Source of the DNA: Hadesarchaea archaeon
GTDB lineage: Archaea > Hadarchaeota > Hadarchaeia > Hadarchaeales > Hadarchaeaceae
Direction: 5' to 3'
NCBI GenBank assembly: GCA_029259175.1
Contig: JAPDJH010000005.1
Coordinates: 57,913-121,912 of the forward strand
Length of the DNA: 64,000 nt
Shown: positions 28,067 through 64,000 of the stretch, piece by piece
How the letters are laid out: each line of letters starts with the position of its first letter
How positions within the stretch are numbered: position 1 is the first letter of the stretch
Translations under genes and position numbers: made by a program
Notes under the pieces: model-generated
Told to the model about the DNA's origin: nothing
What the model saw: only the letters and a program-made list of their open reading frames with translations
The model's database searches: none

Positions 28067-28144
28067 TGGTGGGGTCGCCGGGATTTGAACCCAGGTCACC
28101 AGCTCCCAAAGCTGGCAGGATAGACCAAGCTACCCCACGACCCC
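28067..28144 (-). tRNA. tRNA-Pro (UGG), CCA encoded
   Basis: GGGGTCG/CGACCCC acceptor stem, CCAGC-TT-TGG-GA-GCTGG anticodon arm, TTCAAAT T-loop. Confidence 0.96.
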
Positions 28145-28166: not shown

Positions 28167-29360
28167 TTAAGAAGCTCTCCGTTTCAGAGATTTTGCGACC
28201 TCTTTTTCCAGCCAGCTGAGAGGAACATCCGGAATCGCTATCCGAGTGCTCTGTCCCCTGTGTCCTGGCCCTGAAGGCTTCAGCATAACAAGACCCAAAG
28301 CACGTAATCTTTGAAGATAACTCCAGAACTGAGTCACTCCTCGCGGTTTTTCCCCATATTCTTCACATACTATGCGATAGGTGTTTTTCACCTCGCCCGT
28401 GAACACATAAGCTTGACCGCTTGATTTTAAACGCCGAACCACAGCGAGTAATGCAAGTTTCTCATGGAGCTGGAGGTCGGCCAACACGTCGCGTCGGATT
28501 TCTGGATATACCTCCGATTTGGCTTCCCGAGCATGCTCGGGCAAAACTGTTTCTGAACCATAATTATCCGCCACCAGTCCCGCTCGCCACAGCAGCTCGA
28601 GAGCAAGCCTTGCGTTCCCCCATCTCGCCGCGATATCTGCAATCAGCTCCACTGTTTCTGGATCTACAGCGCCAGGCCGAAACGCCAATTCTATCCGCTG
28701 CTCCATAATATCCATGAGCTCCTGAGCGCCGTATCCTTCGAGAACCAACATGTTGTGCATAAATGTGCTGCGCGTGGGGGAGTCAAGCTTATCTAGAAAG
28801 CGTCGATCGTGGGCGATCCCGAGAATGCTTATCCGATTTTTCAATCCCTTCTCCTCTGCTGCTCGGGAAAGAAAGAACAACAAATCCGGACCGTTCAGAT
28901 TGACAAAATAATCGATCTCATCCAGCGTCAAAAGCAGATATTTGTCATGGACCTGAAGGTGAGTGACAACCATATCCAACAATTTTTCCGGCCCAAGACC
29001 GTGGTACGGCCAGCGTGGGTTGTAGTGCTGAACCAGTTTAGCACATATCGCAAACACCGTCTTGTCCTTCCGGCAGTTGAGATGAAGATAATCCAGCTGG
29101 ATTTTTTTCTCGCGCGCCAGCTCCTTTAGCTCCGTGCCGAACTTGTACGCGAGAACCGTTTTCCCGACACCGATATCTCCCACTATCAGAGCGCGCTGGC
29201 TGGTTAGAGATGCGAGCAGTGGGCGAAAGACCTGGGCAAGCCATCGGAACTCGTCGTCTCGGTGAACTAAAACCGGAGGGATGTAGTCCGAAAACAGCAC
29301 GCTGGGATCCCTGAAGACCGAACGCTTGCGGAGTTCTTCCTCGAGAATTCTCCTCGACAT
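28167..29360 (-). CDS. cdc6: Orc1/Cdc6 paralog
   Basis: DYIPP.L.HR, GDIGVGKT, LDEIDY, GNARLAL.LL, C-terminal wHTH. Confidence 0.9.
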   Translation of the reverse strand: MSRRILEEELRKRSVFRDPSVLFSDYIPPVLVHRDDEFRWLAQVFRPLLASLTSQRALIVGDIGVGKTVLAYKFGTELKELAREKKIQLDYLHLNCRKDKTVFAICAKLVQHYNPRWPYHGLGPEKLLDMVVTHLQVHDKYLLLTLDEIDYFVNLNGPDLLFFLSRAAEEKGLKNRISILGIAHDRRFLDKLDSPTRSTFMHNMLVLEGYGAQELMDIMEQRIELAFRPGAVDPETVELIADIAARWGNARLALELLWRAGLVADNYGSETVLPEHAREAKSEVYPEIRRDVLADLQLHEKLALLAVVRRLKSSGQAYVFTGEVKNTYRIVCEEYGEKPRGVTQFWSYLQRLRALGLVMLKPSGPGHRGQSTRIAIPDVPLSWLEKEVAKSLKRRAS

Positions 29361-39160: not shown

Positions 39161-39246
39161 CGCCGGGGAGGGGATTTGAACCCCTGCGACCCGCAAGGGT
39201 CACCAGATCTCGAGTCTGGCGCCTTACCTGGCTTGGCTACCCCGGC
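39161..39246 (-). tRNA. tRNA-Ser (CGA)
   Basis: GCCGGGG/CCCCGGC acceptor stem, CCAGA-CT-CGA-GA-TCTGG anticodon arm, long variable arm GACCC-TTGC-GGGTC. Confidence 0.96.
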
Positions 39247-45060: not shown

Positions 45061-46336
45061 TTCTGGGCCCCCTGCTCACTACGTCCACCAACTGGGTTAG
45101 CAGGTGTTCAAACCGGTAATCACCCTGTACTGCAGAATAGACTTGAAGCGGGTCGACTTCCAGCCGGATCTCTTTGGTTCGGCCGTAACGCCCACGGTTC
45201 ACTATTCTGGCCGAGAGAACCCCAAGCGTGTCTAATTCTGAAATCAAATCACTCACACGGCGTCTGGTCAGCGGGTGCTCGCCCAGTTGTTCGCACACCT
45301 GTCGGTAAGAATCGTAAACCTCGCCGCTCTGAAGAGCTCTCGAAAAACGCTGCGCCAAGACTGCCACGGTGTACAAAACAATTTTTGATTGAAGTGGGAG
45401 TGTTTGGAGCACCTCCACGGTCTGATCCGCTTCGATCTGTTCACGGGCTTTCCGAACGTGTGCGGGCATCACTTTCTCGTCCCCTTCAGCTTCTGCGATC
45501 TCGCCAGCGACCCTAAACAAATCGAGAGCTCGTCTCGCGTCTCCATGTTCACGTGCAGCATAGGCGGCACACAATGGGATTACTGCTGGATCCAAAACCC
45601 CCTCGACAAAACTCATGCGGGCCCGCTCGGCAAGTATATCACGAAGCTGGTTGGCGTTGTAGGGAGAAAACACGAGCTCTTCTTGACCCAAGCTACTTCG
45701 GACTCGACCGTCCAGAAACTCCAAAAAGTTCAAATCATTAGATATCCCGATAATCGATACCTTTGCGTTAACCAAATCTGAATTAATTCTGGTGAGTGCA
45801 TAGAGAGAATCGTCGCCGGTGCGTCTTACGAGACGATCCACCTCATCCAAAACGATAACACACATGTGCTTCTCGCGGTCGAATGCTTTGATAAAACTAC
45901 GATAGACCTCATCTATGGGCCAGCCTGTCCGTGGAACACGTTCCGGGAGACCCAGCGCGCGTAAAGCCTCTTTGCCTCTCTCTTTTTTCAGTTCTTCCAA
46001 AAACACATCTGCCAATTTCGCCAGCAAACGGTAGTGAGTGTTTGTGATCTCACAGTTTATGTAAACTGATTTGACCTCAAAATTAGACTGTTTAGTGGCT
46101 TCTTCAAGCTCTCGCAACACGTGTTTCACGGTGGCCGTTTTGCCTGTTCCAGGTTTACCGTAAATCAAAATATTAGAAGGAGTTTCACCCCGCAACGGTG
46201 CCGCCAAGATTCGGGCCAATTTGTGAATCTCTTTATCACGGTGGGGGAGTCTCTCCGGAATATAAGTCGGTCTTAAGTACTCGCGATTCTTAAAGATGGG
46301 CTTTGAATTGAGAATCATGTCAAACAGCCCTGGCAT
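45047..46336 (-). CDS. cdc6: Orc1/Cdc6 replication initiator (Orc1-1 type)
   Basis: YIPERLPHR, YGKPGTGKT, LDEVD, HGDARRALDL, RRVSDLISELD.LG, GRYGRT. Confidence 0.96.
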   Translation of the reverse strand: MPGLFDMILNSKPIFKNREYLRPTYIPERLPHRDKEIHKLARILAAPLRGETPSNILIYGKPGTGKTATVKHVLRELEEATKQSNFEVKSVYINCEITNTHYRLLAKLADVFLEELKKERGKEALRALGLPERVPRTGWPIDEVYRSFIKAFDREKHMCVIVLDEVDRLVRRTGDDSLYALTRINSDLVNAKVSIIGISNDLNFLEFLDGRVRSSLGQEELVFSPYNANQLRDILAERARMSFVEGVLDPAVIPLCAAYAAREHGDARRALDLFRVAGEIAEAEGDEKVMPAHVRKAREQIEADQTVEVLQTLPLQSKIVLYTVAVLAQRFSRALQSGEVYDSYRQVCEQLGEHPLTRRRVSDLISELDTLGVLSARIVNRGRYGRTKEIRLEVDPLQVYSAVQGDYRFEHLLTQLVDVVSRGPRSGNW

Positions 46337-46823
46337 TGTCTTTCACCTCCTCTCCGAGCTCGAGAAAACTTTCCAGCCATTTCATCCACCAGCTCAAAAT
46401 CTTCGAAACCGTGCTCACTAACAACCTCTCCTCGTACACATCGACACGTGCACTTTCTGGCTCGATCGCCAGTTTTAAAAGTTTCAACGCGCGCCTATCT
46501 GCCAACTGTAATGCCAACCGTTTGAGTTCTGCAGCTTCTTCGTTTCTTCCTTGGCTCTGTAGCAGATTTATGGATTCTCTCACACTCCAATAAAAGTCAG
46601 AAGGGAGTTCGCTGAGCTGAATCCGGTTTTCTTCAGAGACCAGTTTTTTTCTCAACTCGGCCGGTGAAACACTCCGCACTTTAATATCGCCTCGCCTTGC
46701 GAGCACGCGTGCTTCCCAACAAAACAGTTCGATTTTGTCTTCAGCTTCAAAAGGCCCGATTTCCTGACCTGCAATCGACACCGCTGGCACATCCTTTAGA
46801 ACTTCGACTTGGGTCTTCACCAT
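46320..46823 (-). CDS. GINS subunit Gins23-like
   Basis: N-terminal B-domain (IGPF...IEL..WEA..L...G) then helical A-domain (LSELP.DFY, R..KLLKLA); next to mcm. Confidence 0.75.
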   Translation of the reverse strand: MVKTQVEVLKDVPAVSIAGQEIGPFEAEDKIELFCWEARVLARRGDIKVRSVSPAELRKKLVSEENRIQLSELPSDFYWSVRESINLLQSQGRNEEAAELKRLALQLADRRALKLLKLAIEPESARVDVYEERLLVSTVSKILSWWMKWLESFLELGEEVKDNARAV

Positions 46824-48820
46824 TTCACCCTCGCGATAGTTTCCTCAGAAGGCGAATAGAGGGCCCCACGGTTTTTCTCGGTTTCTATGTAATGGTCTAC
46901 GAATTTTTCAGGAATGTTTCGCTCTACAGCCCGTCTCTTCAATTCCTTGATTGGGATGTACTCGCCGTACTCCGCCTCCAATTCCTCGAAAATCTCTTGA
47001 ATACGGGCTATCTTTTCCCGCTGAGATTTCGGCACCCCTGTGGTAATGAGATCCACATCAACCAAACCCGTGTGTATGTCCATGCCCACTTGTTCGAGAT
47101 AGTATTTGACGAGCTCAATAGCGCGTTTTGCATCTTCTATAGTGACTTTCTCACTGAATCTCAAACGGGCCCGCGCTTTGGCCAAGCGGATGATGGCCTC
47201 TAGTTGTCGAATCGTGATCGGTAAAACACCTCCTTTAGCAGAAACTGTTCTGCGCCATTCCACATAGAAATCCTCGATGAGCTTCTGGGCTTCTTTGTCG
47301 GAAAACTTGGGATGGATGTTCTTTCGGGCATAAATGATCATTTTTCTAAGCAAATCTAGTTTGATGGGAGGCTTCACAACTTTCTGTGGCTTAGTATGGA
47401 GAGTTATCACGTGTTTGGCCATAGCATGATCGTCTTCTGTTTTTGGTTCGTCCTTCAAGGCAAAAATTAAATCGAAACGGGAGAGCAACACGGGATCCAA
47501 TGGAAGTTGGGAAGCGATAGGAGTATTTTTATCAAATCGTCCGTGCACCGGATTCGTAGCTGCCAAAACGGCTGTGCGGGTGTTGAGAGTAGCAACGATG
47601 CCTGCCTTTGCGACGCTTATGGTCTGTTGCTCCATCGACTCGAGCATTGTGCCCCTTTCCTCTTCTGGCATTTTCTCAAACTCGTCGATGCACGCGAGCC
47701 CCCCATCGGCGATCACCAAAGCTCCTGCCTCCAAGTTCCAACCGGTGCCTAGCTCGTCGCGAACCGCCGTGGCCGTCAGTCCGGCACCCGTTGTCTTTTT
47801 GCCCGAAGTATAAACTCCACGGGGTGCAACCTCAGCGACCCATTTGAGAATCTGGCTTTTTGCTGTACCGGGTTCACCGGTCAATAAAATGTGGATATCG
47901 CCGCGAATCCGTGTGCCATCCTCTAGTTCTAACGGATCACAACCAAAAAGCTGGAGGGCGATCGCTTCCTTGACGGTTTCATGCCCCATTATGGCTGGAG
48001 CAATCGAATGGATTATCTTATGGCTAATCCATGGGTCCTTTGCCAGCTTCTCTATTTCTTTAATGTCTTCTGATGTCAACTCGGTCTCTTCCACTCCTTT
48101 TTGTAAAACCTCAAGGTGGTTGACTAGGAATACTGTGGTCATTACGCGCTCTTTTTTTCTGCTGAACAAAGGCTGAGGAACGCCCGTGAGGATCACATGG
48201 TTTCCAGGAACTGCTTGATCCACCAAATCGTCGCGCAGAATTCCTTTGAGTCGTCGCGGCATGCGCCCGCCCCGAAGCTTGGCTGGCGGTTCTTGGACTG
48301 CAATGCTCTGCCAATCTCGAAATTCGGTTGACTCAAGCACGAGCTCAAAAGCGTTGGGTCCTCGAGCTTTACAGTTGGGGTTCTCACAAATGAAAGGAGT
48401 TGTGATAAAATCTCCGACCTGCTCTTTGCGGTACTCTTCGCCGCACCGTTTGCATCTGAAAGTGGCCACGTTTATTTCAGGTCTAACTTGACCAGCCTGA
48501 ACCATTATGCCCTCTATTTGAATCAGTCTACCTAGGTGTTCAGCGCGAATCTCTCGGATTTCGACACTTTCTCCCAAATTTTTAATTCTCAAACTCATGC
48601 GAGGAATCTGAGTTATGCTTTCCAAAAGCTTTGTAGCCTCATCAAAAACTTTCAACGGCTCGTTTAACACGTATTTGGCCAACTCTTGATCGAACTGAAT
48701 GATCTCGTCATAATCCACTATTAACGATTTTCGGCCAGCAGCCACAGCTTGTTTCAATCTTTTGGAAATGGCAGATTGGCGCAGGAAATCTTCTAACTTC
48801 TCCCTCATTTTTTGATCCAT
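46817..48820 (-). CDS. mcm: MCM replicative helicase
   Basis: Zn finger, GEPGTAKSQ, IDEFEKM, MEQQTISVAKAGI, SRFDL, RQLE; no intein. Confidence 0.97.
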   Translation of the reverse strand: MDQKMREKLEDFLRQSAISKRLKQAVAAGRKSLIVDYDEIIQFDQELAKYVLNEPLKVFDEATKLLESITQIPRMSLRIKNLGESVEIREIRAEHLGRLIQIEGIMVQAGQVRPEINVATFRCKRCGEEYRKEQVGDFITTPFICENPNCKARGPNAFELVLESTEFRDWQSIAVQEPPAKLRGGRMPRRLKGILRDDLVDQAVPGNHVILTGVPQPLFSRKKERVMTTVFLVNHLEVLQKGVEETELTSEDIKEIEKLAKDPWISHKIIHSIAPAIMGHETVKEAIALQLFGCDPLELEDGTRIRGDIHILLTGEPGTAKSQILKWVAEVAPRGVYTSGKKTTGAGLTATAVRDELGTGWNLEAGALVIADGGLACIDEFEKMPEEERGTMLESMEQQTISVAKAGIVATLNTRTAVLAATNPVHGRFDKNTPIASQLPLDPVLLSRFDLIFALKDEPKTEDDHAMAKHVITLHTKPQKVVKPPIKLDLLRKMIIYARKNIHPKFSDKEAQKLIEDFYVEWRRTVSAKGGVLPITIRQLEAIIRLAKARARLRFSEKVTIEDAKRAIELVKYYLEQVGMDIHTGLVDVDLITTGVPKSQREKIARIQEIFEELEAEYGEYIPIKELKRRAVERNIPEKFVDHYIETEKNRGALYSPSEETIARVKW

Positions 48821-52738: not shown

Positions 52739-53250
52739 GGGGGACCACCGACCGAGGTTATCAATAACAAGTCTTTTTGTTTACAGAACTCGGATAGCCA
52801 GCTAATGGCTTTTCGGGCATGTCGGTCACTATCGCTAAGAATGGTAAGTCTAGCAGCTGATTCTTTTCTGGGTCCGCCCATTGCTAGACTCAAATCCATC
52901 ACGCGCGTTCCGGTTATAGAGTTTATTCGATCCACCAAGGTGCGGATGTCGGCGTGAACTATATGTCCGAGTAAAATAACTGTCTGCTTTACTGTGTACA
53001 CCTCCTCACCTACTTGGGTGACCAAGACGTTGCGCGACTTCAGCGCGTTCAAAACACGTTTGAGACGGGATTGATCCTCGATCTCGAAGATCAGCGTTAC
53101 GGGGACTCGGCCAAGAGGTGTTTTGTGCTCCCGCTGGTGGATTATGCTCTGGATGTTGCCCCCGTAACGGGCGATTGGTTCTAAGGCTCTCAGCAATTGC
53201 CCCGGGATGTCCTCGAGCTCCATAACTAGCTTGACCAACACGCTGCTCAC
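52735..53250 (-). CDS. ACT-domain allosteric subunit associated with homoserine dehydrogenase
   Basis: ELEDIPGQLL..L.PI...GGNI.SIIH; GHIVH; coupled to hom. Confidence 0.85.
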   Translation of the reverse strand: MSSVLVKLVMELEDIPGQLLRALEPIARYGGNIQSIIHQREHKTPLGRVPVTLIFEIEDQSRLKRVLNALKSRNVLVTQVGEEVYTVKQTVILLGHIVHADIRTLVDRINSITGTRVMDLSLAMGGPRKESAARLTILSDSDRHARKAISWLSEFCKQKDLLLITSVGGPP

Positions 53251-53283
53251 CTCGGCTGAAACCCCTACTCTCTCTGAGGCCCT

Positions 53284-53424
53284 TTATTTAACGATGCCTA
53301 GTTCTGCCAGCTCCGAACGCTTGAGGGTGCAGTGTCCGTTTTCGTAGAAATCACACTCTGGACAGCACTCACCGCGTTTGTCACACTCCTCATAAAGATA
53401 ACAATTGGGGCAACACCTCGGCAT
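53284..53424 (-). CDS. Small Cys-rich protein (46 aa)
   Basis: MPRCCPNCYLYEECDKRGECCPECDFYENGHCTLKRSELAELGIVK; GGTGAG SD and TTTATA upstream. Confidence 0.7.
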   Translation of the reverse strand: MPRCCPNCYLYEECDKRGECCPECDFYENGHCTLKRSELAELGIVK

Positions 53425-53537
53425 TTCTCTCACCAAAACTCTCAGATTCGGATATGGGAATCGAAGATATAAAGCTAAGCCTTGAGCAAAAGCGAGAACC
53501 GAAAAGCTTAATCCGAAGAAAAAATATAAGATATGAT

Positions 53538-53792
53538 GCCGGGATGGGGTAGCTCCTAGAGATGGTTCCGGGGATCCCGCTGGCACTGCCCGAGGGTCCA
53601 AAAGACTCTGGCGGGCTTGTCAGAAGCGCCAAGGAACCGCTCGAAAACCTCGACCGGTAGGGAAGCGGGGCCGAAAGGTAACCGCCCAGCTCGGGAACGG
53701 GCTGGATCGGACGGTCTTGTGGGCTTTCCCATGTGGAAGGTCCGTGGAGGCTGTTCGGCCCTGCCGGAAGAGGCGGAGTTCCCTGTCCCGGC
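53538..53792 (+). ncRNA. Large GC-rich structured RNA of unknown class (~255 nt)
   Basis: Ends pair (GCCGGGAUGGGG..AGCUCC / GGAGUU-CCCUGUCCCGGC), nested helices with G-U pairs, GAAA and GGAA tetraloops, BRE/TATA-like CCGAAAAGCTTAAT upstream, T-run downstream. Confidence 0.75.
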
Positions 53793-53832
53793 GCTTTTTT
53801 TATGAACTCAAAACAGAGAAAGTGATGGAAGG

Positions 53833-53943
53833 ATGAGTCGGCGCAAAAAAAAGTCAGCCACCGAGCGTTTGAAAATGCTTCAAACCAGAATTTTGACCCC
53901 TTCGGATATCGGGAGGCGCCTGCGTCGTAAGCGTAAGAAATAG
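53833..53943 (+). CDS. Putative highly basic micro-protein (36 aa)
   Basis: MSRRKKKSATERLKMLQTRILTPSDIGRRLRRKRKK*; fills the gap between the RNA and the radical SAM gene. Confidence 0.45.
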   Translation: MSRRKKKSATERLKMLQTRILTPSDIGRRLRRKRKK

Positions 53944-53959
53944 AAACCCCACTTTAGAT

Positions 53960-54829
53960 TTGATGGTGCTCGAAGTCATTCGCAGATTCGATCCTTGGTC
54001 GGATTCTTGGTGCACCTGTCCAAAAAAGTACAGCCTGAACCCATATACGGGATGTGCACATCGCTGTGTCTACTGCTATATCACTTCTTACATTCCACGG
54101 GCATTTGAATGCCGGCCCAAACGGAATCTGCTGGAGAGGGTGGAGCGCGATATTAGAAAAATAGAGAAGGGCGTGCACGTAAGCATGTCGAACAGTTCGG
54201 ATCCATACCCGCCTCTCGAAGCGGAACTACGGCTCACCCGTGGGTGTTTAGAGCTTTTTCAGAAGAATGCGATCCCGGTACAAATAATCACCAAATCTGA
54301 CTTGGTGGTAAGAGACCTGGAGATTCTGAAGAATATGTGCTGTGTGGTAAGCTTCACGATCACTACTATGGATGAACGAGTCAGACGCAAACTTGAGCCC
54401 GGTGCACCTCCAAGTGAAAAGAGACTCCAAGCAATGCGTGAACTCGCCGAATTAGGGATTGCTGTCACTTTACGTTTAGATCCGGTGTTTCCGGTGTTGA
54501 ACGAGGGAGAAGTAGAAGAAATAGTGGAGGCTGCGGTTAGTGCGGGGGCGCTTCACGTGACCACATCTACTTTCAAGCCTCGGGCTGATGGGTGGAAAAG
54601 GTTTTCCCAAGTATTTCCACGTGTTGCAGAGCAAATCCGTGATCTTTATTTTGTCGAAGGGTTTAGAAGACACAATGCATTTTATTTGCCAGACAACGAG
54701 CGTCGAAGGCTGCTGGAAATGGTAGCTAAAGCCTGTCAACGGAATCGTGTTAGTGTAGCGTTCTGCCGTGAAGGAATAAAGTTCAAAGCGCCCAGTTGCG
54801 ATGGGAGCCACTTACTCGGAGACTTCTGA
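53960..54829 (+). CDS. Radical SAM protein, SplB/COG1533-like
   Basis: SLNPYTGCAHRCVYCY, SNSSDPYPP.E....TR, TKS.L..RD, LEP.APP...RL. Confidence 0.88.
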   Translation: MMVLEVIRRFDPWSDSWCTCPKKYSLNPYTGCAHRCVYCYITSYIPRAFECRPKRNLLERVERDIRKIEKGVHVSMSNSSDPYPPLEAELRLTRGCLELFQKNAIPVQIITKSDLVVRDLEILKNMCCVVSFTITTMDERVRRKLEPGAPPSEKRLQAMRELAELGIAVTLRLDPVFPVLNEGEVEEIVEAAVSAGALHVTTSTFKPRADGWKRFSQVFPRVAEQIRDLYFVEGFRRHNAFYLPDNERRRLLEMVAKACQRNRVSVAFCREGIKFKAPSCDGSHLLGDF

Positions 54830-55645
54830 AACGGTCGTTTGAACTGGGACTGTTGCTGGAGCGAATCTCGTTAAGGCGCGGGCCGGAGCCGGCGGTAGAG
54901 TCCACCTTGCTGGCCTAAGATGAGGTGGCGTGGCTTGAAGTATAGTAAACGAGTCCAACTCATCTGGATTCACAGGTACTGAAACGAGATTAGTGCGGGG
55001 GTTCAGGCTCATCGGCGCTAAAAGGAGGCCTCGCCTGACACGGAGCTCGGAGAGGAGGCAAATCCCCGCTTCACTTTCGAGCTGGAGGGAAGAAGGAGAG
55101 AGAGCATGAGTGCTCACATCGGAAGAAACGACGATGGTGCTCGCTATGTAATCAGTTAGCTTGTGATGGAGATCGTCGAGAGCCTGGAGATTTCCGAACC
55201 AGCACTCGTAAGGGATATAAGCCAGCGGTACTATTATATCGAATCCTAGCTGTCCATCGTACTTCACCCATGGCTCTATCCCTAGAGATCGGAGCGCCTG
55301 CACGATCAGCTTAGTGATGCACTTACTGATCTTCAATCCTCCTTTTTGTGGCCGCACCGTCCAGACCAAATCGCGACCCACCGGTTGTTCTGGTCCTCCG
55401 GCGTAGTACCAATAAGAGATATAAAAGGCCTGTGCACCTTGGGCGACATACTGACGGATGTTCTCTGGTGTTAATCTGATAGGTTTTCGTTCGTTGCCTA
55501 CACGTTCATAGCGTTGGATGGATTGAATCCGAGAGTTATAGATTGCACTCTCTCGCACTCCCATGCCCATTGTGCTATTAGCGGAAAGCAGGAGGATCGA
55601 TTGCACATCGCATCGCTCGTAGTACATCTTTTCCCTCCGGTCCAA
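54812..55645 (-). CDS. Archaeo-eukaryotic primase (PriS/LigD-Pol-like) homolog with degenerate catalytic motifs
   Basis: GRDLVW, VKYDGQLGFDIIVP (cf. K.SG.KG.H...P), LLAPMSLNPRTNLVSVPV...EL..F (cf. R.PYSL...GLVSVP). Confidence 0.7.
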   Translation of the reverse strand: MDRREKMYYERCDVQSILLLSANSTMGMGVRESAIYNSRIQSIQRYERVGNERKPIRLTPENIRQYVAQGAQAFYISYWYYAGGPEQPVGRDLVWTVRPQKGGLKISKCITKLIVQALRSLGIEPWVKYDGQLGFDIIVPLAYIPYECWFGNLQALDDLHHKLTDYIASTIVVSSDVSTHALSPSSLQLESEAGICLLSELRVRRGLLLAPMSLNPRTNLVSVPVNPDELDSFTILQATPPHLRPARWTLPPAPARALTRFAPATVPVQTTVSEVSE

Positions 55646-55705
55646 AACTCAAGAGGGATTTATAAACGGATTGAGAGGAGGGGTCGCCGAAAGTATTCTG
55701 CCCGA

Positions 55706-56131
55706 CCCCTTTGTTTCCACTGGAGATGATTTGATAATTAGCATTAGATTATTTATGATATAATAATAGATAAACTAGGTGCAGATATTGAGTGAACTAG
55801 ATTGGTTGGCTGGATTTCTCGATGCTTGTGGGTGTTTTACAAAAAATAAGTTAAAAATAGTCAGAAAAACCGAGAATAGGCTAAAAATTTATCGGTATCA
55901 AAACCCTGTTCTGTTTGTGGTAAATAATGATCCTTCTCCACTGGAAATAGTGAGGCGGATGATCGGGGGAGGGAAAATAATTCGAATAGGAGGTTCATAC
56001 CGATTAGAGGTCCGACGCAAGCAAGATGTTTTACGGGTTGTGGAACTGATAGATGGGCGGTTGAGATCCTTTAAAAAGAAAGAAGTCTTTGAGAAATGGA
56101 AATGGTTGGTTTTCCAGTGGAAACAAAGGAG
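55706..56131. other. Probable chromosomal replication origin (oriC)
   Basis: Inverted ORBs: CTCCAGTGGAAACAAAGGGG on minus (55706-55725) and TTCCAGTGGAAACAAAGGAG on plus (56112-56131); 17-bp perfect inverted repeat; very AT-rich 55727-55777. Confidence 0.8.
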
Positions 56132-56147
56132 TACCAGGATCCACTGA
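55779..56147 (+). CDS. Single-motif LAGLIDADG-fold protein, probably nuclease-dead
   Basis: WLAGFLDACGCF, then beta-strands, L..V...IGGGKI and YRLEV..KQDV..VVELI typical of the fold. Confidence 0.75.
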   Translation: MQILSELDWLAGFLDACGCFTKNKLKIVRKTENRLKIYRYQNPVLFVVNNDPSPLEIVRRMIGGGKIIRIGGSYRLEVRRKQDVLRVVELIDGRLRSFKKKEVFEKWKWLVFQWKQRSTRIH

Positions 56148-57439: not shown

Positions 57440-57580
57440 TTGGTTTCCGATTTCTTTTCTGACTTAGCGGAATAAAAAATTTTTTTCATTCCAAGTTGAT
57501 GTTTCATCGAAAAGAGATCGAAAGCAGAACCGTTTTTTCATGCTCGCATTTCTGGGCGGTTGCTGGGGGTTTTCTTGGAG

Positions 57581-57884
57581 TCGTGAGCGGGTTCTCTTCG
57601 GAAACCTTGACCTCCGAAGTTGGCGACTCTGGGCCGCCTTTAGGGCCGGAACCCGCACGGCCCCGTTCCCGGAGCGCTGCTCCGGAAACCTCTTCCCCGG
57701 GCCTGCCGATCCGCGCAGTTCTGCTTCCCGCAGAGCGCCACGGACGGTGCGAGAAGCGCTCTCTGGAGTCACCGATCTGGGCATTCCGTAGAGCGGTTCC
57801 GCCTCTCCCTTTAAGCTTGTTTCGGGGAGAGGGATGGGCGAAAGTATTTGCGGGGTCAGGAGTTTCGAAGAGAACCTCGTGAGC
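57581..57884. repeat. ~290-bp GC-rich element with long terminal inverted repeats and 8-bp flanking direct repeats (MITE or structured RNA)
   Basis: TCGTGAGC-GGGTTCTCTTCGGAAACCTTGACCTC ... GGGGTCAGGAGTTTCGAAGAGAACC-TCGTGAGC. Confidence 0.6.
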
Positions 57885-57918
57885 AAAACTTTAAACACCA
57901 CCGGTCCGAGAGAGATTT

Positions 57919-58260
57919 GTGCACGACGCAGATTTGGTAAAGCAGCGGATTTTGCTTGAACTGAAAAGCCGTCCAGCATCCACCTTGTGGAAATTAGCGA
58001 ACACGCTCGGACTGCCGGTTTCAGAAATAGAAGAAACGCTGGTGGGGCTCGCTGATAGCGGACTGGTCAGAGTGACGGCATCTGGCTGGGAGCTCACCGC
58101 GCGGGGGCTGGAGTGGCTCGGAAGGTCCGCCGAGACCCCTTCCCCGAACAAACAGCCGAGCAAGGTAGGGCGCCCGAAGGAAGTAGTCAAGATCCCCCTG
58201 CCAAGCGATGTGGAGCGCTCCAAGAAAGTCCGCAAGCCCTTCAAGGAAGAGAAGGACTAG
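57919..58260 (+). CDS. Winged-helix protein with basic low-complexity tail
   Basis: RILLEL....STL..LA..LGL..SEI...L..L...GLV......WELT..G; TTTAAA ~24 nt upstream suggests a leaderless mRNA. Confidence 0.7.
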   Translation: MHDADLVKQRILLELKSRPASTLWKLANTLGLPVSEIEETLVGLADSGLVRVTASGWELTARGLEWLGRSAETPSPNKQPSKVGRPKEVVKIPLPSDVERSKKVRKPFKEEKD

Positions 58261-61200
58261 TCTCCTTGTGCTGGCTTGAGTAGTTTCTTCGCCCTACTTC
58301 TCTTCACTTTTGCTGGTTTTGTTTTTTCCTTCTTTCTCAGTTCCTCCACAGCTGGGGCGAGCAGATCTTTATAGGTTTGGATCACTGGTGGGAGCTCCTC
58401 TGATTTGCGTTTTCGGACCACTGGCCGTTTGAGCTCTACCTTGGCAGGCCGTCCTCTCCACCACCTTATGAATCTCACGGAACCGAAGATGCCTAGCGGC
58501 GCGATGAAGATAAGTGCGAGCAGGTATACTGGGAACGCTGGTGAAGGAGGCAGAACGGTCTCCGACTCGACCCCGCTGCCGAAGAATCCGAGGGCTGGAG
58601 CACTGACGGAGAAGTAAATATAGTTGGCATCTCTGTCAGTAAACGTGGCGGGGAGCGCTTCCCACTCTCCCTCTTCCCGCCAATAATAGACGTGGATGAG
58701 GTGTTCTTTGCCGGGGTCGGCCAGCCAGCTGGGCAACCTCACTTGCAGGGTAAGGTCTTGGATCAAGGCCGGATCTAGATTGGTGAGAAGCTGGAAGTAC
58801 TGGTAGGGGCGCACGGGGATCGGAGGCATATTCTCTGGTAGATTTTCAATAGTTTCGATCCGCATCCACCCCCCGGGCACGTTTTCGGAGGGCACGAAAG
58901 AGACGGCAACGAGATCGGTTCCTAGTTCGGAGAAGTCGAGCTCTACGTTTTCTCCAGCGGGGGCGGTCGGGATTTCCACGGTCCCGACTCGGGCCCGGAG
59001 TTCTATCTCATCCATGGCGGTCGAGACGTTCCCCGCGCGATCCCTCACCCGAGCATAGACGTGCTTCAATCCTTCTGGTAGTGAAAGGGTGTAGGTGCGC
59101 TGGACGTCGAAGGGCTCCCATTCGGTCCACTGGACGAGATCCTCGCTGAATTGCATCTCAGCTATTTCTGAAAGTTCGTCGACGGCGGCGAGGGACAGAG
59201 TCACTTCGCGGGAGAGGGTAAAGGGTGAGTTCTCGTTGATCGTGAAGTTTAGAATTCGGGGTGGCGTGGTGTCGATTCCGCAGCGGGTGTCGGCGGTTTC
59301 GGGTGGGGCCTCGGTGTTGTTGCCGTCGTCCGTGGCGATCGAGTAGAACTCGTAGTGCCCGTCGTTTTCGGGGGCGATGAAGGACCAGCTCCAGGGAGCT
59401 TCGGTGTCGGTCGCGAAACTCTTCCACTCGCTCCAGGGGTCGTTCTCATTCGCGCGGTAGCGGTAGTAGAGGGCAACGCTGGTGACCGTTCCGTCCGCGT
59501 CGCTGGCCTGCGCAGTGATGACCACGGGAAGCTGCGAGTGCCAATAAGGCTCGATGTTTTCAACGAAGGACACGGGCGGAACCGGTGCTGGCCCGGGAGC
59601 GGAGCCGCCGGCCGCTTCTTGAATAGTCACTGTGTGAGCATAGATTTTCTCATTCCCCGCCGCGTCTCTGGCCTTGATTTGAATGGTGTGGTCGCCGGTT
59701 GAGAGAGCTCCTGTGTTAAAGCTGAAGCTCACCTCCGGAGCCGGAAGGGCAGGACTAATGTCGACGATGGGCTCCCACGCACCACCATCCACACTGTAGC
59801 GTAACCACGTGATATCGGTTCCCGTCCCGTTGACCTTTCCGCTGTAGTCCAAGGAGGTCTCGGTTGTTGGTGAGGAGGGGACACTCATGTCGAAGAACTG
59901 GGGAGGATCGGTGTCGATCTGGAACTTCCAAACCTCGGACCACCGGAGCTGATTTCCGGAGCGATATCCTCCCACACGCCAGTACCACACCTCGTCCTCG
60001 AGCGTGGCGGTGTAGGAGTTCTCCCGGATGTTGTCGTTGTCGATGGTGGGGGAGGAGAAGTCTGGGTCGTTGTCCACTTGGAGCCAGAAGTTGTCTACTG
60101 GGCACAGGTTGTCCCAGCGAAGCGTGACGGTTGGCTCATTGGTGATGGTGTTGTTGTCGGGAGAGAACAGGATTGGGGCTACGCTGAGGGTGCTTGATTG
60201 CCAGCTCTCAGCGACGCGCCAGAGCGGAGCGGTTTTGCCCGATCCTGCCCACTCAGCGACAGTTCTCCACACCCCTTTTGTTGCTCGTAGTGCAGAGTCC
60301 CATCTTTCCACCCAGCCCCACCGTGAAACCGAGGAGAGGAGAAGCGCCTTCCACTCCTCGACGACGCTCCACACCCCCGGCGCTTCTGCTTCTCCACTCC
60401 ACTCTTCAACAGCTTTCCATTCAGCCGTTATGGGATTTGTTTTGGCTGACCAACTTTCGATGAGTGTCCACTGGGCCATCTTTACCCCGATTTCTCCAGT
60501 CCAGCATTCAGCGGCCCTCCACTTCCCAGCACTGGAATGAAGAGCACCGGTCCAAGATTCAACATTCTTCCACTCTGCCGGGGTCTTCATTGTCCCCGTC
60601 CACTGCTCAGCGCTTGTCCACAGGATTGTTTTTGGTTTCACCCCTCCTTGCCAGGATTCGGTGGCTTTCCATCCAGCCGTTTCCGAGCGCACGGTTGTAG
60701 TCCAAGACTCGTGCGCGCACCACTCGGCAAGCGTTTCAAGCGCTCCGCTCCACCCTTCCGCGAGTTCCCAAGCCACCTCTTTGCTCCTTGGATTAGCAGT
60801 CCATCCTTCAGCTGCATTCCACTGAGTTGTTTTCGATATGGTTCCGCTTACCCATGACTCGACACTGAGCCACGCGGCTGTTCGCTTGATCTCGGCCGTC
60901 CACAGCTCAACCGAGACCCAAACTCCGCGTCCTTGGATCGAGCAGCTCCACTGTTCGAGCTCCCGCCACGTCGCGATGATGATCACCCACGTGTTCTCCG
61001 ACCAGTTCTCAACCCCTCCCGTGCCAAGCGCTGCGACACGCCACCAATACACGCCGGGGGGCAGAGCGTTTTCGATCTCTATGAGGTTTTCGTTGGCCGG
61101 GATGTTCGCGTTGTCGTAGAGATTGTCTCCGTCCGCGAAGTTCGGATCGTTATCGATGACGAGTCGATATCCGGACTCTCCGGTCACATCGGTCCAGCGG

Positions 61201-64000
61201 AAAGCGGGCGTAGGGTCGGCCGTGTAGGTGAGGTTTTCGGGGCTCAGGAGTTGCGGCTTGCCGGGTGTGACGGGAGGTGGAGTGTATGTGATCTCCACCC
61301 AGTAGAGCACGGGGGTGAGCGTGTTGTCTTCGCTTGCGAAATCCACCCGGTACTGGATGTAGCGGTTGTCCCCCAGGCCGATTGTGCTCCCGCTGGGGTC
61401 GGTGTAGGGTCCCTCCCAATCGGTCCAGGTGGTTCCGTCGGCGCTTGCTCGCGCATAGATTTCGATCGAGGTGGAGTAGACGTTCTCCTCCATCACCACG
61501 CACGCGTCGATGTGGGCGACCGTCTGGGTCGAATCAGTGTTGTCCCATGCTTCCAGCTTCACGTAGAGGTTGTCCCCGTCTAAGTAGCTCGGGTAGACCG
61601 TGTTCTCGATCCACCCAGTATTCGCCTCGCCCACGGGGAGGTTGTCGATGAACAGCCACCGCGAGTTCGCGTTGTCCCACACCCATATCCCGATGTTCTC
61701 CGAGTCTCCGTCGGAGTATCCGTAGATTCTGAGCTTGAGGCTCTCCCAGTCGGTGGTGATGTTCTCCACCGTGTACTGCCAGCGCAGGCCGTAGTTCTCG
61801 GGCGTGTGGTTTTCGTAGAAAATCAGGAAGTCCTCCTGCAGGCGGTGGGCGGTGCTCTGGACCGAGGTCCGCAGGCGCACGCGCACGTTGTCCCCCCCGC
61901 CCCCGAGATTGCTCAGGTAGTTGTCCGGGTCGAGAGTTATCGTGTTCTCCCACGTCACCTCGGTGCTCCCCACCGAGCCGGAGTTCAGGAGCACCCACTG
62001 GTCCGAGCTGAAGTCGTAGATTTCGAGCTGGTACTCGGCGGTGTTTTCGGACGCGAAGCTCACGTGCACCGTGAGGTTGTCCAGGGTCCCTTGGTAGGTG
62101 ATCGGTTCTGACTCGTGCACGACCTCCAGGATGTACCCGGTCGAGGTGTAGTTCTCCTGAAAGAGGAGGTAGTCGATCTGCACCCGGTGGTCCGAACTCT
62201 CCCCGGTGGTGTAGAGGCGCACTCGGATGTTCTCCCGCCCCGGAGTGTCCGAGATGAAGTTCTCGATGTTCTCGCCGAAAGTCCCGTCGTAGATGACATT
62301 CTCCCACGTCACCTCGGTCGTCCCCACCTCTCCCGAGTCCAGCGTCCGCCACTCCTGGGCATCCCAGTTCCAGATCTGCCACGTGTAGGTCACGGTGGCG
62401 GTCGACTTGAAGTTGATGACCAAGCGCAGGTTGTCGATGTCGGCCTCGGGCGTGCTCACCTGGCTCGAATCGAAGCGGAGGTCGAGGGAATAACTCAACG
62501 TAGCGGCTTCAGAGCGTTTGAAGGCGAGATCAGCGAACCCCGTTGAAAGTGAATTCACATTGGTACTGAAATTGTCGACGTCCAGCGTGAACCCGCTTCC
62601 GTCCCATCGAATCGAACCCACTCTGGCAGGCGTACTCCCTCCGTCGGTAGTGTTGATGCTCACCCCCAAGATCTCGTCCGGGTCGTTCGGATTCTGGCGT
62701 AGGGTTATCCAGTGGTAGTCGTCCGTCGTGCCCAGTCCGGTGTCCGTCCCCCAGCCGGAGGAGGGGGTCCACACGTTGTAGGTGGGTTCGCTGGCGTCGT
62801 CGCCGTCAAACAGGATGATGCACTTGCTCTCTCCTGCTTCCCATGCGATGTCGAAAACCTGGTGGGTGTAGGTCAGAGCTGCTCCTTCGTGTTCGTGCTC
62901 TCCCACAAAGGTATCTGAACTTCCGTCCCAGACCACCGAGTACAAATCTCCCCCGTCATCAAGCATGGTTACCATGATGTTGTCCGAGTGGGGGTCTCCC
63001 TTGGCGACCACAAAGCGAATGTCACCGCCGTCGACCGTGGAATCGTAGGTTACCTCGGGGCCCCACGAGCTGCCGTCCCACTTTCTGGCCTTGAGCACGC
63101 CTGCTGTGGGGGTGGCCCAGAAGAAAACGGCCTCTCCCGATTGGTGCTCGTAGGCCACGGCGACCGGTTGTTGCCCGTCTCCGACATAATTTCCATCAGA
63201 GGAGAGCACGAGCTCATTTCCCCAGCTCGACCCGTCCCAAATAAGGGCGGTAACATTATCCGCTTCATCTATGGTTATCATCGCGATCTCGTCTGAATCG
63301 GGTTTGCTTGCGAGCTTGACCACCACCACATCGTCCGTGTTAGCGGTCAGGTCGATTCCCTGAGGAGCGCTCCACTGGTTTCCGTCCCATACACTGTACA
63401 TCAGCTCGTAGGTTCCGGCTCCACCGAACTGGTCTGTGGACCAGACCAAGAGAGCATCACCGCTGACATTTTCGTATGCGAGGTCGAAGCTACGGTCGTC
63501 ATCCACTACCGAGCCCCCGCTCCCGAGTTCGTGATTTTCAATCCAAGAGTTTCCATCCCACACGTAGACATCTAGATATCCGTCCTCTCCCAGTGTGACA
63601 ATTATCCGTTCGTTGGCCCTAGTGGATACCGGACAGTATTCGACCCTCGTCCACTGAATGTAAGCGCCGGTGTCCGCGAGTTCGTTTTCGGTTCCCCAAG
63701 CAGCCCCATCCCAGTCACGGAACTTCGGATAATTCTCGTTGGAGACATCCGAGCGGTATCCGACCGTTCCCTCAGGCGCGCTCCCAGCCGCCCCAGTCTG
63801 TTCTGCATCCACTTCATAGTAGTTGGTATCGTCATCAACATCCATGGAGTCCGTCGAGGTTCCGCTGACCTCAGTCCCGTTCTCCACCAGCGTGTAGTTT
63901 TCGTAATCGGTCTCGCTCTGGTAGAGAACAGCGCTTTCAGCGTCGACCTGGTAGTTCTCACCGTCGTCGGCGTCGAGGTTGTCGGTCGAGTTCAGAGCCG
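58257..64000 (-). CDS. Giant multidomain cell-surface protein (N-terminus beyond the window)
   Basis: Frame stays open from 63887 to the edge; acidic beta-rich repeats (WDG..W), Ig/FnIII-like modules (DTDPP, DAAGN, DRAGN), PGF-pre-PGF-like domain, C-terminal TM and basic tail. Confidence 0.88.
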   Translation of the reverse strand, partial: ALNSTDNLDADDGENYQVDAESAVLYQSETDYENYTLVENGTEVSGTSTDSMDVDDDTNYYEVDAEQTGAAGSAPEGTVGYRSDVSNENYPKFRDWDGAAWGTENELADTGAYIQWTRVEYCPVSTRANERIIVTLGEDGYLDVYVWDGNSWIENHELGSGGSVVDDDRSFDLAYENVSGDALLVWSTDQFGGAGTYELMYSVWDGNQWSAPQGIDLTANTDDVVVVKLASKPDSDEIAMITIDEADNVTALIWDGSSWGNELVLSSDGNYVGDGQQPVAVAYEHQSGEAVFFWATPTAGVLKARKWDGSSWGPEVTYDSTVDGGDIRFVVAKGDPHSDNIMVTMLDDGGDLYSVVWDGSSDTFVGEHEHEGAALTYTHQVFDIAWEAGESKCIILFDGDDASEPTYNVWTPSSGWGTDTGLGTTDDYHWITLRQNPNDPDEILGVSINTTDGGSTPARVGSIRWDGSGFTLDVDNFSTNVNSLSTGFADLAFKRSEAATLSYSLDLRFDSSQVSTPEADIDNLRLVINFKSTATVTYTWQIWNWDAQEWRTLDSGEVGTTEVTWENVIYDGTFGENIENFISDTPGRENIRVRLYTTGESSDHRVQIDYLLFQENYTSTGYILEVVHESEPITYQGTLDNLTVHVSFASENTAEYQLEIYDFSSDQWVLLNSGSVGSTEVTWENTITLDPDNYLSNLGGGGDNVRVRLRTSVQSTAHRLQEDFLIFYENHTPENYGLRWQYTVENITTDWESLKLRIYGYSDGDSENIGIWVWDNANSRWLFIDNLPVGEANTGWIENTVYPSYLDGDNLYVKLEAWDNTDSTQTVAHIDACVVMEENVYSTSIEIYARASADGTTWTDWEGPYTDPSGSTIGLGDNRYIQYRVDFASEDNTLTPVLYWVEITYTPPPVTPGKPQLLSPENLTYTADPTPAFRWTDVTGESGYRLVIDNDPNFADGDNLYDNANIPANENLIEIENALPPGVYWWRVAALGTGGVENWSENTWVIIIATWRELEQWSCSIQGRGVWVSVELWTAEIKRTAAWLSVESWVSGTISKTTQWNAAEGWTANPRSKEVAWELAEGWSGALETLAEWCAHESWTTTVRSETAGWKATESWQGGVKPKTILWTSAEQWTGTMKTPAEWKNVESWTGALHSSAGKWRAAECWTGEIGVKMAQWTLIESWSAKTNPITAEWKAVEEWSGEAEAPGVWSVVEEWKALLLSSVSRWGWVERWDSALRATKGVWRTVAEWAGSGKTAPLWRVAESWQSSTLSVAPILFSPDNNTITNEPTVTLRWDNLCPVDNFWLQVDNDPDFSSPTIDNDNIRENSYTATLEDEVWYWRVGGYRSGNQLRWSEVWKFQIDTDPPQFFDMSVPSSPTTETSLDYSGKVNGTGTDITWLRYSVDGGAWEPIVDISPALPAPEVSFSFNTGALSTGDHTIQIKARDAAGNEKIYAHTVTIQEAAGGSAPGPAPVPPVSFVENIEPYWHSQLPVVITAQASDADGTVTSVALYYRYRANENDPWSEWKSFATDTEAPWSWSFIAPENDGHYEFYSIATDDGNNTEAPPETADTRCGIDTTPPRILNFTINENSPFTLSREVTLSLAAVDELSEIAEMQFSEDLVQWTEWEPFDVQRTYTLSLPEGLKHVYARVRDRAGNVSTAMDEIELRARVGTVEIPTAPAGENVELDFSELGTDLVAVSFVPSENVPGGWMRIETIENLPENMPPIPVRPYQYFQLLTNLDPALIQDLTLQVRLPSWLADPGKEHLIHVYYWREEGEWEALPATFTDRDANYIYFSVSAPALGFFGSGVESETVLPPSPAFPVYLLALIFIAPLGIFGSVRFIRWWRGRPAKVELKRPVVRKRKSEELPPVIQTYKDLLAPAVEELRKKEKTKPAKVKRSRAKKLLKPAQGD

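Follow-up and report, generated by a model that had tools for sequence, protein, structure and literature searches.

A two-domain structured RNA of Hadarchaeota as a divergent member of a candidate new RNA class

In Bacteria, each new class of structured noncoding RNA of the size of OLE, ROOL, GOLLD or raiA has opened a line of work. In Archaea, by comparison, we know of very few large structured RNA classes beyond ribosomal RNA, transfer RNA (tRNA), RNase P RNA, signal recognition particle (SRP) RNA, and guide small RNAs (sRNAs). Here, we describe a predicted RNA encoded on the plus strand at positions 53538–53792 of a 64,000-nucleotide (nt) stretch from a Hadesarchaea archaeon (contig JAPDJH010000005.1, positions 57,913 to 121,912; hereafter, the window). 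Like raiA, OLE, ROOL, and GOLLD, the RNA appears to come from a stand-alone gene that has a strong promoter and encodes a fold of several domains with heavy covariation, and it shares with them nearly invariant internal loops, a patchy, lineage-restricted distribution, and the lack of a known function. At ∼200 nt, raiA is the nearest in size to the Hadarchaeota family, whose members are 255 to 296 nt long, and OLE, ROOL, and GOLLD are much larger. Large "ornate" bacterial noncoding RNAs are treated in two papers (PMC12286853, PMC12968392). The window's RNA differs from the four bacterial classes in its archaeal host and in matching none of their Rfam models.

Two archaeal RNAs also invite comparison. 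Archaeal SRP RNA (RF01857) shares with the window's RNA a similar length, paired ends, capped hairpins of GNRA or GNAR type that leave a junction, and a conserved internal loop; however, its covariance model gives no match at E≤10, and the Hadarchaeota RNA is missing from many relatives. Archaeal RNase P RNA (RF00373) has a similar length and a P1-like closing helix around two domains, but the first-pass annotation of the window, made from its letters alone, saw no CR-I, CR-IV, or CR-V motif, and the RNase P model does not score at E≤10. A third likeness is to the HgcC, HgcE, HgcF, and HgcG noncoding RNA genes of AT-richer hyperthermophiles, which were first found as GC-rich islands. The RNA at 53538–53792 is likewise a GC-rich island (65% GC versus 51% across the window), and in relatives the GC content rises after an AT-rich promoter dip; it is longer than the Hgc type, has another architecture, and matches no Rfam Hgc family.

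We lean toward reading the element as an independently transcribed, stable, trans-acting structured RNA, a divergent member of an undescribed single-copy RNA family that, within the genomes searched, is restricted to a single taxonomic family of the Hadarchaeota (Hadesarchaea). Judged by sequence and secondary-structure models, it would rank as a new RNA class. The first-pass annotation had suggested a stable noncoding RNA of possibly new class, and this was the right reading: the screens for known families were empty, covariation was strong, and the stretch is present in RNA libraries. What emerges is a 255- to 296-nt RNA with a covariation-backed two-domain fold from uncultivated subsurface and hydrothermal Hadarchaeota, which offers a ready target for structure determination and probing, and a covariance model that annotation pipelines can use.

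Fold and covariation of the RNA

We folded the plus strand of 53538–53792 with RNAfold and obtained a minimum free energy (MFE) structure of −157.8 kcal/mol, compared with a mean of −112.1 ± 5.3 kcal/mol for 200 dinucleotide-preserving shuffles, none of which (0/200) folded as well (z = −8.64). The reverse complement reached −110 kcal/mol (z = −2.67). In the MFE structure, a terminal helix (GCCGGGAUGGGG/CCCUGUCCCGGC and AGCUCC/GGAGUU) encloses two domains. The first is an extended hairpin with the helices UGGUUCC/GGAACCG, CUGGCA/UGUCAG, GCCCG/CGGGC, and AGGGUC-CAAAA-GACUCU, and the second is a multibranch domain that includes a long hairpin at 53707–53758, in which both the MFE structure and the family model described below pair UGGGCUUUCC with GGAAGGUCCG around a CAUGU loop. 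The sequence is as the first-pass annotation gives it, and most of the helices drawn there (the terminal helix, the extended hairpin, the multibranch domain, and the GAAA- and GGAA-capped hairpins) recur in the MFE structure. A GUGGG-CUUU-CCCAU hairpin that it had also drawn found no support in either the MFE structure or the family, and the UGGGCUUUCC/GGAAGGUCCG pairing takes its place.

Sequence search alone would have made this RNA an orphan, because blastn of the RNA against 60 relatives gave no usable homologue and only one match, of 25 nt (E = 0.0013), in genome G008. Homologues came instead through flanking-gene synteny, the route that had been proposed for finding them. Orthologues of the radical-SAM gene that lies downstream of the RNA are present in most relatives, and in eight such loci a GC-rich block of ∼280 nt sits just upstream of the gene. 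Each of the eight blocks is preceded by an AT-rich dip and shares with the window RNA the elements CUAG, GGAUCCC, and a closing CGGCGC followed by Ts. From these eight relatives, with the window excluded, we built a covariance model of 283 positions and 98 pairs (R1). R1 matched the window at 53536–53794 over its full length (1–283) with 67.3 bits (E = 1.5e-16), and the next-best match within the 64-kilobase (kb) window scored 10 bits. Since R1 was built without the window and yet matches it, the homology is not circular.

Covariation was assessed on two alignments. RNAalifold applied to a plain MAFFT alignment of nine sequences also arrived at this architecture, and 34 of its 95 pairs are maintained by two-sided change. 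The second alignment, of 31 sequences (30 distinct), was fitted to R1, a procedure that favors R1; in it, 96.1% of the cells held standard pairs, against 89.8 ± 0.3% in shuffles, and 63 of the 98 pairs showed two-sided change, against 29.0 ± 2.9 in shuffles, a level reached in 0 of 500. When the 3′ partners were slid by 1 to 3 columns, pairing fell to 36 to 47% and the covarying pairs to 11 to 23. We take the covariation signal to be real because the independent MAFFT/RNAalifold result and the slid controls both speak for it. Covarying pairs are present in all 11 helices; in the helices that form domain 1 (family helices 4, 5, 6, and 7), two-sided change was seen at 11/12, 2/7, 7/8, and 5/5 pairs, respectively. 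The alignments show selection on the fold, not on the sequence. The covariation that the first-pass annotation had made a test of its proposal was thus strong, where its absence would have counted against an RNA.

Strand and conserved elements can be read from the same sequences. All 30 sequences keep several G·U and U·G pairs of the long hairpin unchanged, and such pairs, which hold on the plus strand only, indicate that the plus strand is the RNA, in line with the two z-scores and with the strand favored at first pass. Family helix 1, with 99.3% pairing, has its counterpart in the outer 9 base pairs (bp) of the window's terminal helix. The elements best conserved in all members are the CUAG at the entry to domain 1 and the junction nucleotides of domain 2. 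All members also carry an internal-loop module in domain 1, GGAUCCC(A/G)CUG facing CAG(C/A)AG(C)G(C); the relatives' counterpart of the window's module is UGGAUCCCACUG facing CAGCAGGCUG.

Putative transcription signals, expression, and distribution

Conservation extends beyond the ends of the RNA. Twenty-nine other distinct upstream sequences carry the consensus GAAAGTTwTTTATGG ∼36 to 22 nt ahead of the G that opens the terminal helix, and the window's CGAAAAGCTTAATCC aligns with it; from its position and this consensus, CGAAAAGCTTAATCC would act as the promoter. In most family members, a run of Ts lies within 0 to 4 nt of the last paired base, where it probably terminates transcription. The first-pass annotation had given the RNA a promoter and a terminator of its own, and here the conserved block resembling a B recognition element and TATA box (BRE/TATA) and the T-run both agree with it, but the more conspicuous AAAAATATAA does not qualify as the promoter element: at 53520–53529, it does not align with the family block and is too close for the RNA start.

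Metatranscriptome contigs from two runs of one sample span 53545–53792 and 53204–53788, and the metatranscriptome check proposed at first pass therefore finds the stretch in both runs, in contigs that end at 53792 and 53788. A DNA contig from the same sample extends from 53496 through 54804, past the RNA 3′ end. The RNA contigs show that an RNA library contains the stretch, and they give a weak hint of an RNA 3′ end at the predicted site. Their depths were 15.8 and 5.99 versus 2 to 4 for neighbors; these values hold per contig, and we draw no ranking of expression from them. In a second strain, from other samples (DNA run X2, RNA run X5), we found 13 to 14 substitutions clustered in 53200–53525, a segment comprising a Cys-rich gene and the promoter region, whereas neither the RNA nor the 1.1 kb that follow it carry any.

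A search of 121 related genomes with R1 found one copy each in 31, all of them in the window's taxonomic family (31/45), and no match in the 75 genomes of other families. The pre-filter of this search missed the window's own copy, which makes R1 negatives uninformative for divergent copies. For the final tally we used R2, a shorter model of the multibranch domain only, with the window included. R2 recovered the copy in the window's genome (G000, an archaeal assembly of 1.31 Mb in 23 contigs, 90.9% complete) at G000:C4:111557-111688, which corresponds to window positions 53645–53776, with 64.7 bits. Over 66 Hadarchaeota species genomes, R2 found the RNA in 32, that is, in 31 of the 45 family relatives and in the window's genome, in a single copy each time; it found none in the 20 genomes of five other Hadarchaeota families. 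An exact-pattern scan of 185,579 species genomes returned 28 stretches, 27 of which are labeled Hadarchaeota, Hadesarchaea, Hadarchaeales, Hadarchaeum, or "Hodarchaeaceae". One typical member (L078, JBBIVD010000178.1; 249.5 bits) is labeled Candidatus Bathyarchaeota and may be a mis-binned or mislabeled contig. The exact pattern was also present in 39 metagenome contigs, and it had no match in viral contigs; a distant blastn search found none in plasmids.

Absences within the family are informative as well. In genus g11, seven of the eight genomes gave no match to the RNA, and the same holds for g6 and for single genomes from g5, g9, and g12. At the syntenic site of G003, the Cys-rich and radical-SAM genes are adjacent with no RNA between them, and a filter-free cmsearch of the Cys-gene loci in G002, G003, G013, G020, and G040 gave nothing above 10.7 bits. 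The simplest reading is that the RNA was lost in several lineages, although incomplete assemblies cannot prove absence. The 14 sampled relatives out of 45 in which we did not find it would be natural knock-outs, and within one family they offer a phylogenetic-profile handle on function.

Product, partner, and competing explanations

If the element is a trans-acting RNA, the folded RNA itself would be the functional product. Our best guess is that it serves as a scaffold showing its invariant loops to a protein or ligand, either in a ribonucleoprotein or as a tertiary-structured RNA; we infer these steps from the conserved fold to a scaffold and on to a partner. The only candidate partner seen is a Lys/Arg-rich peptide of 36 amino acids (aa), encoded by an open reading frame (ORF) immediately 3′ of the RNA. 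Twelve of the 66 Hadarchaeota genomes have this ORF, 11 of them in the window's family; in 10 of those 11 it comes directly after the RNA 3′ end, and in G034 the two are on separate contigs. Within the family, it occurs in 11 of the 32 genomes with the RNA versus 0 of the 14 without it, and it is the only neighbor so confined. The peptide is a possible partner and not an obligate one, given that the ORF is missing elsewhere in the family and occurs without the RNA in another. Because several genera of the family are without the RNA, it would be accessory rather than essential.

A number of observations weigh against the reading we favor. The RNA contigs are assembled contigs that cannot give strand, ends, or level, and one of them (53787–54005) overlaps the RNA 3′ end, for which read-through or DNA carry-over may account. 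The 14 family relatives in which the RNA was not found include all three congeners of the window's genome (88 to 95% complete), and the syntenic site is without it in G003, G013, and G020, which makes the RNA dispensable. The apical GGCC loop of domain 1 in relatives has become CCAAAAG in the window copy. As to the partner, the 36-aa ORF is missing from 21 of the 32 genomes with the RNA, and in G038, from another family, it is present with no RNA within 1.5 kb. Finally, the function and partner we propose are predictions drawn from sequence and models.

A bolder proposal is that the RNA founds a new class of large, tertiary-structured archaeal RNAs with an activity of its own, as a ribozyme, a ligand or protein sensor, or an RNA-only assembly. 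We consider this unlikely, if not strikingly so; it would give the bacterial ornate RNAs their first counterpart in Archaea, carried in a conserved origin-proximal block beside a PrimPol-like gene and DNA-repair-type genes. A rival to our preferred reading is that the RNA functions with no protein of its own, as a ribozyme, a ligand sensor, or an RNA-only tertiary or quaternary assembly like those recently solved for bacterial OLE, ROOL, and GOLLD; we rate this as rather unlikely. The compact multi-domain fold, the invariant internal loops, and the GNRA-type loops typical of tertiary docking are all consistent with it, and no conserved protein gene co-varies with the RNA, since the Cys-rich, radical-SAM, and PrimPol-like genes are present in RNA-less genomes too. 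Relatives also expose self-complementary unpaired motifs (CCGG, CUAG, GGAUCC, and the apical GGCC), and RNA-only homo-oligomers of large noncoding RNAs are documented in PMC12286853. Yet the palindromic apical GGCC loop is lost in the window copy, and homodimerization via GGAUCC or GGCC palindromes was set aside as the window copy is without the GGCC loop. In addition, a mutual-information scan of 59 distinct sequences revealed no convincing pseudoknot or run of consecutive tertiary covariation, its top pairs outside the structure being scattered and apparently clade-driven, and the data hold no pointer to a substrate or ligand.

Is the RNA instead a cis-acting 5′ leader, a riboswitch or attenuator of the 36-aa ORF and/or the PA0069-like radical-SAM gene? 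Position lends this some appeal: the radical-SAM gene follows co-directionally 20 to 180 nt downstream in 18 of 31 loci, the small ORF follows after 40 to 60 nt in ∼10 loci, and the RNA-library contig at 53787–54005 bridges the RNA 3′ end and the small ORF. Five loci (L035, L037, L039, L054, and L062), however, have no co-directional gene after the RNA, the next gene being convergent or a radical-SAM remnant, and this argues against a leader. The RNA of L035 is intact and is the best-scoring member of all (298 bits). The T-run after the closing helix in nearly all members, the congener G003 with its Cys-rich and radical-SAM genes adjacent and the RNA absent between them, and the lack of any Rfam riboswitch match point the same way, and we regard a leader as improbable. 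Beside this, we note that ∼60 to 330 nt past the RNA of L035 (genome G017), the radical-SAM gene appears to have been deleted, with a short ORF resembling its C terminus (…SCDGSHL…).

Within its family, the window copy is an outlier. It has 54% identity to its nearest relative, it scores lowest (67.3 bits versus 163.9 to 298.1 for the other 30 members), it is 20 to 40 nt shorter and has no counterpart of family helix 2, of hairpin 3, or of the GGCC loop, and no copy was found in the three congeners, all of which would suit a decaying, nonfunctional relic of a real family in a genus otherwise without the RNA. Neutral decay would destroy pairing, whereas the window copy keeps canonical pairing at 82 of the 98 family pairs, with only 4 broken and another 12 deleted. 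In 27 of the canonical pairs, both bases differ from the family majority, and the terminal helix is extended in place of helix 2 and hairpin 3. As many as 76 of the 97 pairs in the window's MFE structure coincide with the family model, and no other signal in the region is as stable as this fold (z = −8.64). CUAG, GGAUCCC, the promoter block, and the T-run are all kept; the second strain, with its 13 to 14 differences in 53200–53525, has zero inside the RNA; and RNA-library contigs contain the window copy. A relic is therefore quite improbable in our judgment.

We next come to the possibility that the RNA is a known universal RNA (SRP, RNase P/MRP, a group I or II intron, or an H/ACA or C/D sRNA), or a paralogue of one, that has diverged too far for Rfam models to recognize, which its size, in the SRP and RNase P range, and its helix-closed ends might suggest. 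The CAGCAGGC strand of the internal loop may also bear a distant likeness to the AGCAGCC strand of SRP helix 8. The Rfam screens speak to the contrary. At the gathering thresholds, Rfam 15 gave no match on 53538–53792, and the whole window yielded two tRNAs only (28070–28144 and 39161–39246; ARAGORN concurs). A scan of 53400–53950 at E≤10 with 4227 families, none of which matched the RNA, returned as its sole result a DUF805b match upstream of the RNA, at 53490–53511, which with 16.4 bits against a threshold of 35.6 was taken as chance. At six relatives' loci scanned at E≤5, nothing relevant was found; matches to DUF3800-VI, mir-3913, mir-725, and RUF20, all with E≥0.78, were likewise taken as chance. 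The Rfam check proposed at first pass thus came back without a family at the window locus and at the six relatives.

These scans cover the individual classes as follows. Archaea_SRP (RF01857; threshold 96.5 bits) does not match the RNA, and RNaseP_arch (RF00373; threshold 84 bits) gives no match, even at E≤10 over 53400–53950; the genome has its full-length archaeal SRP RNA at G000:C2:112103-112414 (168.6 bits) and its archaeal RNase P RNA at G000:C11:15576-15868 (165.3 bits). The true copies are on contigs 2 and 11, and the first-pass view that the RNA is neither of them stands. In the Rfam 15 scans of the window and the six relatives' loci, there was no riboswitch aptamer class, no group I or group II intron or self-cleaving ribozyme, and no member of the OLE, ROOL, GOLLD, raiA, or Hgc families. 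The RNA is intergenic, with its own promoter block, unlike an intron inserted within a host gene. No Rfam sRNA match of the C/D or H/ACA type was obtained, although boxes and guide complementarity were not searched for explicitly, and a closing helix around two domains is an architecture unlike that of such guides. The RNA is also dispensable in 14 of the 45 family relatives, unlike universal RNAs. Taken together, a diverged known RNA is very unlikely. Two further ideas were set aside: that the terminal helix contains a bulge-helix-bulge processing motif (relative to the 4-bp helix, its 3-nt bulge falls on the wrong side) and pairing of GGUGGAUCC to the 16S 3′ end (the register differs between the window and relatives).

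The literature covered on noncoding RNA of Hadesarchaea and Hadarchaeota gave no prior description, although paper supplements may hold unlisted motifs. The literature covered on structured noncoding RNA discovery, consisting of bacterial surveys and a 2010 survey of Bacteria, Archaea, and metagenomes, likewise gave no description of the RNA. The motifs of that 2010 survey are reportedly included in Rfam.

That the stretch is not an RNA gene at all, being protein-coding, a DNA-level origin-proximal element, or a chance GC-rich fold, is scarcely credible: mechanical ORFs do overlap the stretch on each strand, 21 of 57 distinct sequences share an antisense peptide motif, and a motif like an origin recognition box (ORB) lies 1 to 3.3 kb away in the window and nine related loci, but at most 11 of 57 distinct sequences keep any one frame free of stops, the length of the region departs from that of the reference by other than a multiple of three in 25 of 56, substitutions compensate pairs, conserved G·U pairs mark a strand-specific structure, and the origin-proximal gene block is equally present in the RNA-less relatives L006, L008, and L121.

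Neighboring genes and the wider window

The features of the RNA and its immediate neighborhood are collected in Table 1.

Table 1. Coordinates of the RNA, its elements, and adjacent features in the window
Feature	Position	Strand	Basis or remark
Structured RNA, ∼255 nt, divergent family member	53538–53792	+	MFE, model R1 match, metatranscriptome contig 53545–53792
Terminal helix, 5′ strand (12 bp, 1-nt bulge, 6 bp; partner 53775–53792)	53538–53556	+	MFE
Invariant CUAG, junction into domain 1	53556–53559	+	Invariant in nine-sequence alignment A1; at least 97% in 59 distinct sequences
Domain 1, extended hairpin	53559–53642	+	MFE; equals family helices 4–7
Domain 1 internal-loop module, GGAUCCC facing CAGAAGCGCC	53572–53578 facing 53621–53630	+	GGAUCCC invariant in A1
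Domain 2, multibranch, closed by CCUC/GAGG and CCGGUAGGG/CCCUGCCGG	53648–53773	+	MFE; equals family helices 8–11
Domain 2 hairpins: GAAA-capped; GGAA-capped; long	53665–53685; 53686–53705; 53707–53758	+	MFE
Terminal helix, 3′ strand	53775–53792	+	MFE; RNA-library contigs end at 53788 and 53792
Putative promoter element CGAAAAGCTTAATCC, BRE/TATA-like, ∼−38 to −24 from RNA 5′ end	53500–53514	+	Aligns with GAAAGTTwTTTATGG
Run of seven Ts, likely archaeal transcription terminator	53795–53801	+	2 nt past last paired base
Cys-rich 46-aa mini-protein (MPRCCPNC...), conserved divergent neighbor	53287–53424	−	tblastn, upstream in 26/31 loci
36-aa Lys/Arg-rich ORF, candidate partner	53833–53943	+	Immediately 3′ of RNA
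Radical-SAM gene	53960–54829	+	Best NCBIfam PA0069 family, below cut-off; Pfam Radical_SAM, DUF1848
277-aa protein, possibly primase-polymerase-like	54812–55645	−	ESM-Atlas look-alikes 0.95–0.96, including LigD_Prim-Pol and DNA_primase_S clusters

The conserved gene order runs from homoserine dehydrogenase through an ACT-domain protein and the divergent Cys-rich protein to the RNA, followed on its 3′ side by the 36-aa ORF (optional), the radical-SAM gene (optional), a convergent gene (optional), and the 277-aa protein. The window RNA shares this position, with the Cys-rich gene divergent upstream and the 36-aa ORF and/or the radical-SAM gene downstream. The Cys-rich protein has eight cysteines, two CCPxC...C repeats, and an acidic tail; it matches nothing in Pfam or NCBIfam, and its Atlas look-alikes, all below 0.9, provide no lead. 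Its gene is present in four of five RNA-less family genomes tested (G002, G003, G013, and G020). The 36-aa ORF has the consensus MPKRKKPxYERRLKLIxQRILSPSDIAKRLRKKK and likewise matches no family in Pfam or NCBIfam. With the ATGAA behind it, the T-run that follows the RNA resembles the family TATA block and may double as the promoter of this ORF.

Orthologues of the radical-SAM gene are widespread, and the 277-aa gene, whose product has no Pfam or NCBIfam match, occurs in 45 of the 66 Hadarchaeota genomes, RNA-less ones included. None of the Cys-rich, radical-SAM, and 277-aa genes tracks the presence of the RNA.

The first-pass annotation had placed the RNA ∼2 kb from the origin, and this is plausible. 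Two inverted copies of TCCAGTGGAAAC form an ORB-like pair at 55713–55724 (minus strand) and 56113–56124 (plus strand), within a 20-nt inverted repeat of 95% complementarity (55705–55724 and 56113–56132). Over all its 20 nt, the arm at 55705–55724 agrees exactly with an archaeal ORB motif that Ori-Finder 2 terms "Common", TCCA[CG]T[TG]GAAA[TC][GA]AAGGGGT (PMC4164010). The inverted-repeat site at 55705–56132 is probably a replication origin. ORB-like motifs lie 1 to 3.3 kb from the RNA in the window and nine related loci, and they occur in the same gene block of RNA-less relatives too (L006, L008, and L121); the proximity of RNA and origin would be a consequence of block synteny and need not be functional. 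The repeat arms flank a 122-aa ORF (55779–56147) with a weak LAGLIDADG_1 match (23.4 bits against a cut-off of 23.1).

Matches to the Orc1/Cdc6 C-terminal domain were seen at 45134–45415 (109.9 bits) and 28233–28487 (minus strand; 71.4 bits), the former just upstream of the MCM gene (46817–48820) and ∼10 kb from the ORB pair. Farther along, 57440–58260 is a segment of ∼800 nt without a convincing gene, with only overlapping mechanical ORFs on both strands and no Rfam match; it holds a 23-nt inverted repeat (57590–57612 and 57854–57876) and has a 20-nt direct repeat in common with 55678–55697 beside the ORB. The ORF that follows on the minus strand (58257–63887) encodes 1876 aa, is rich in Trp and Glu, and has internal repeats; at the C terminus, a hydrophobic segment precedes a basic tail, and the product looks like a giant surface protein.

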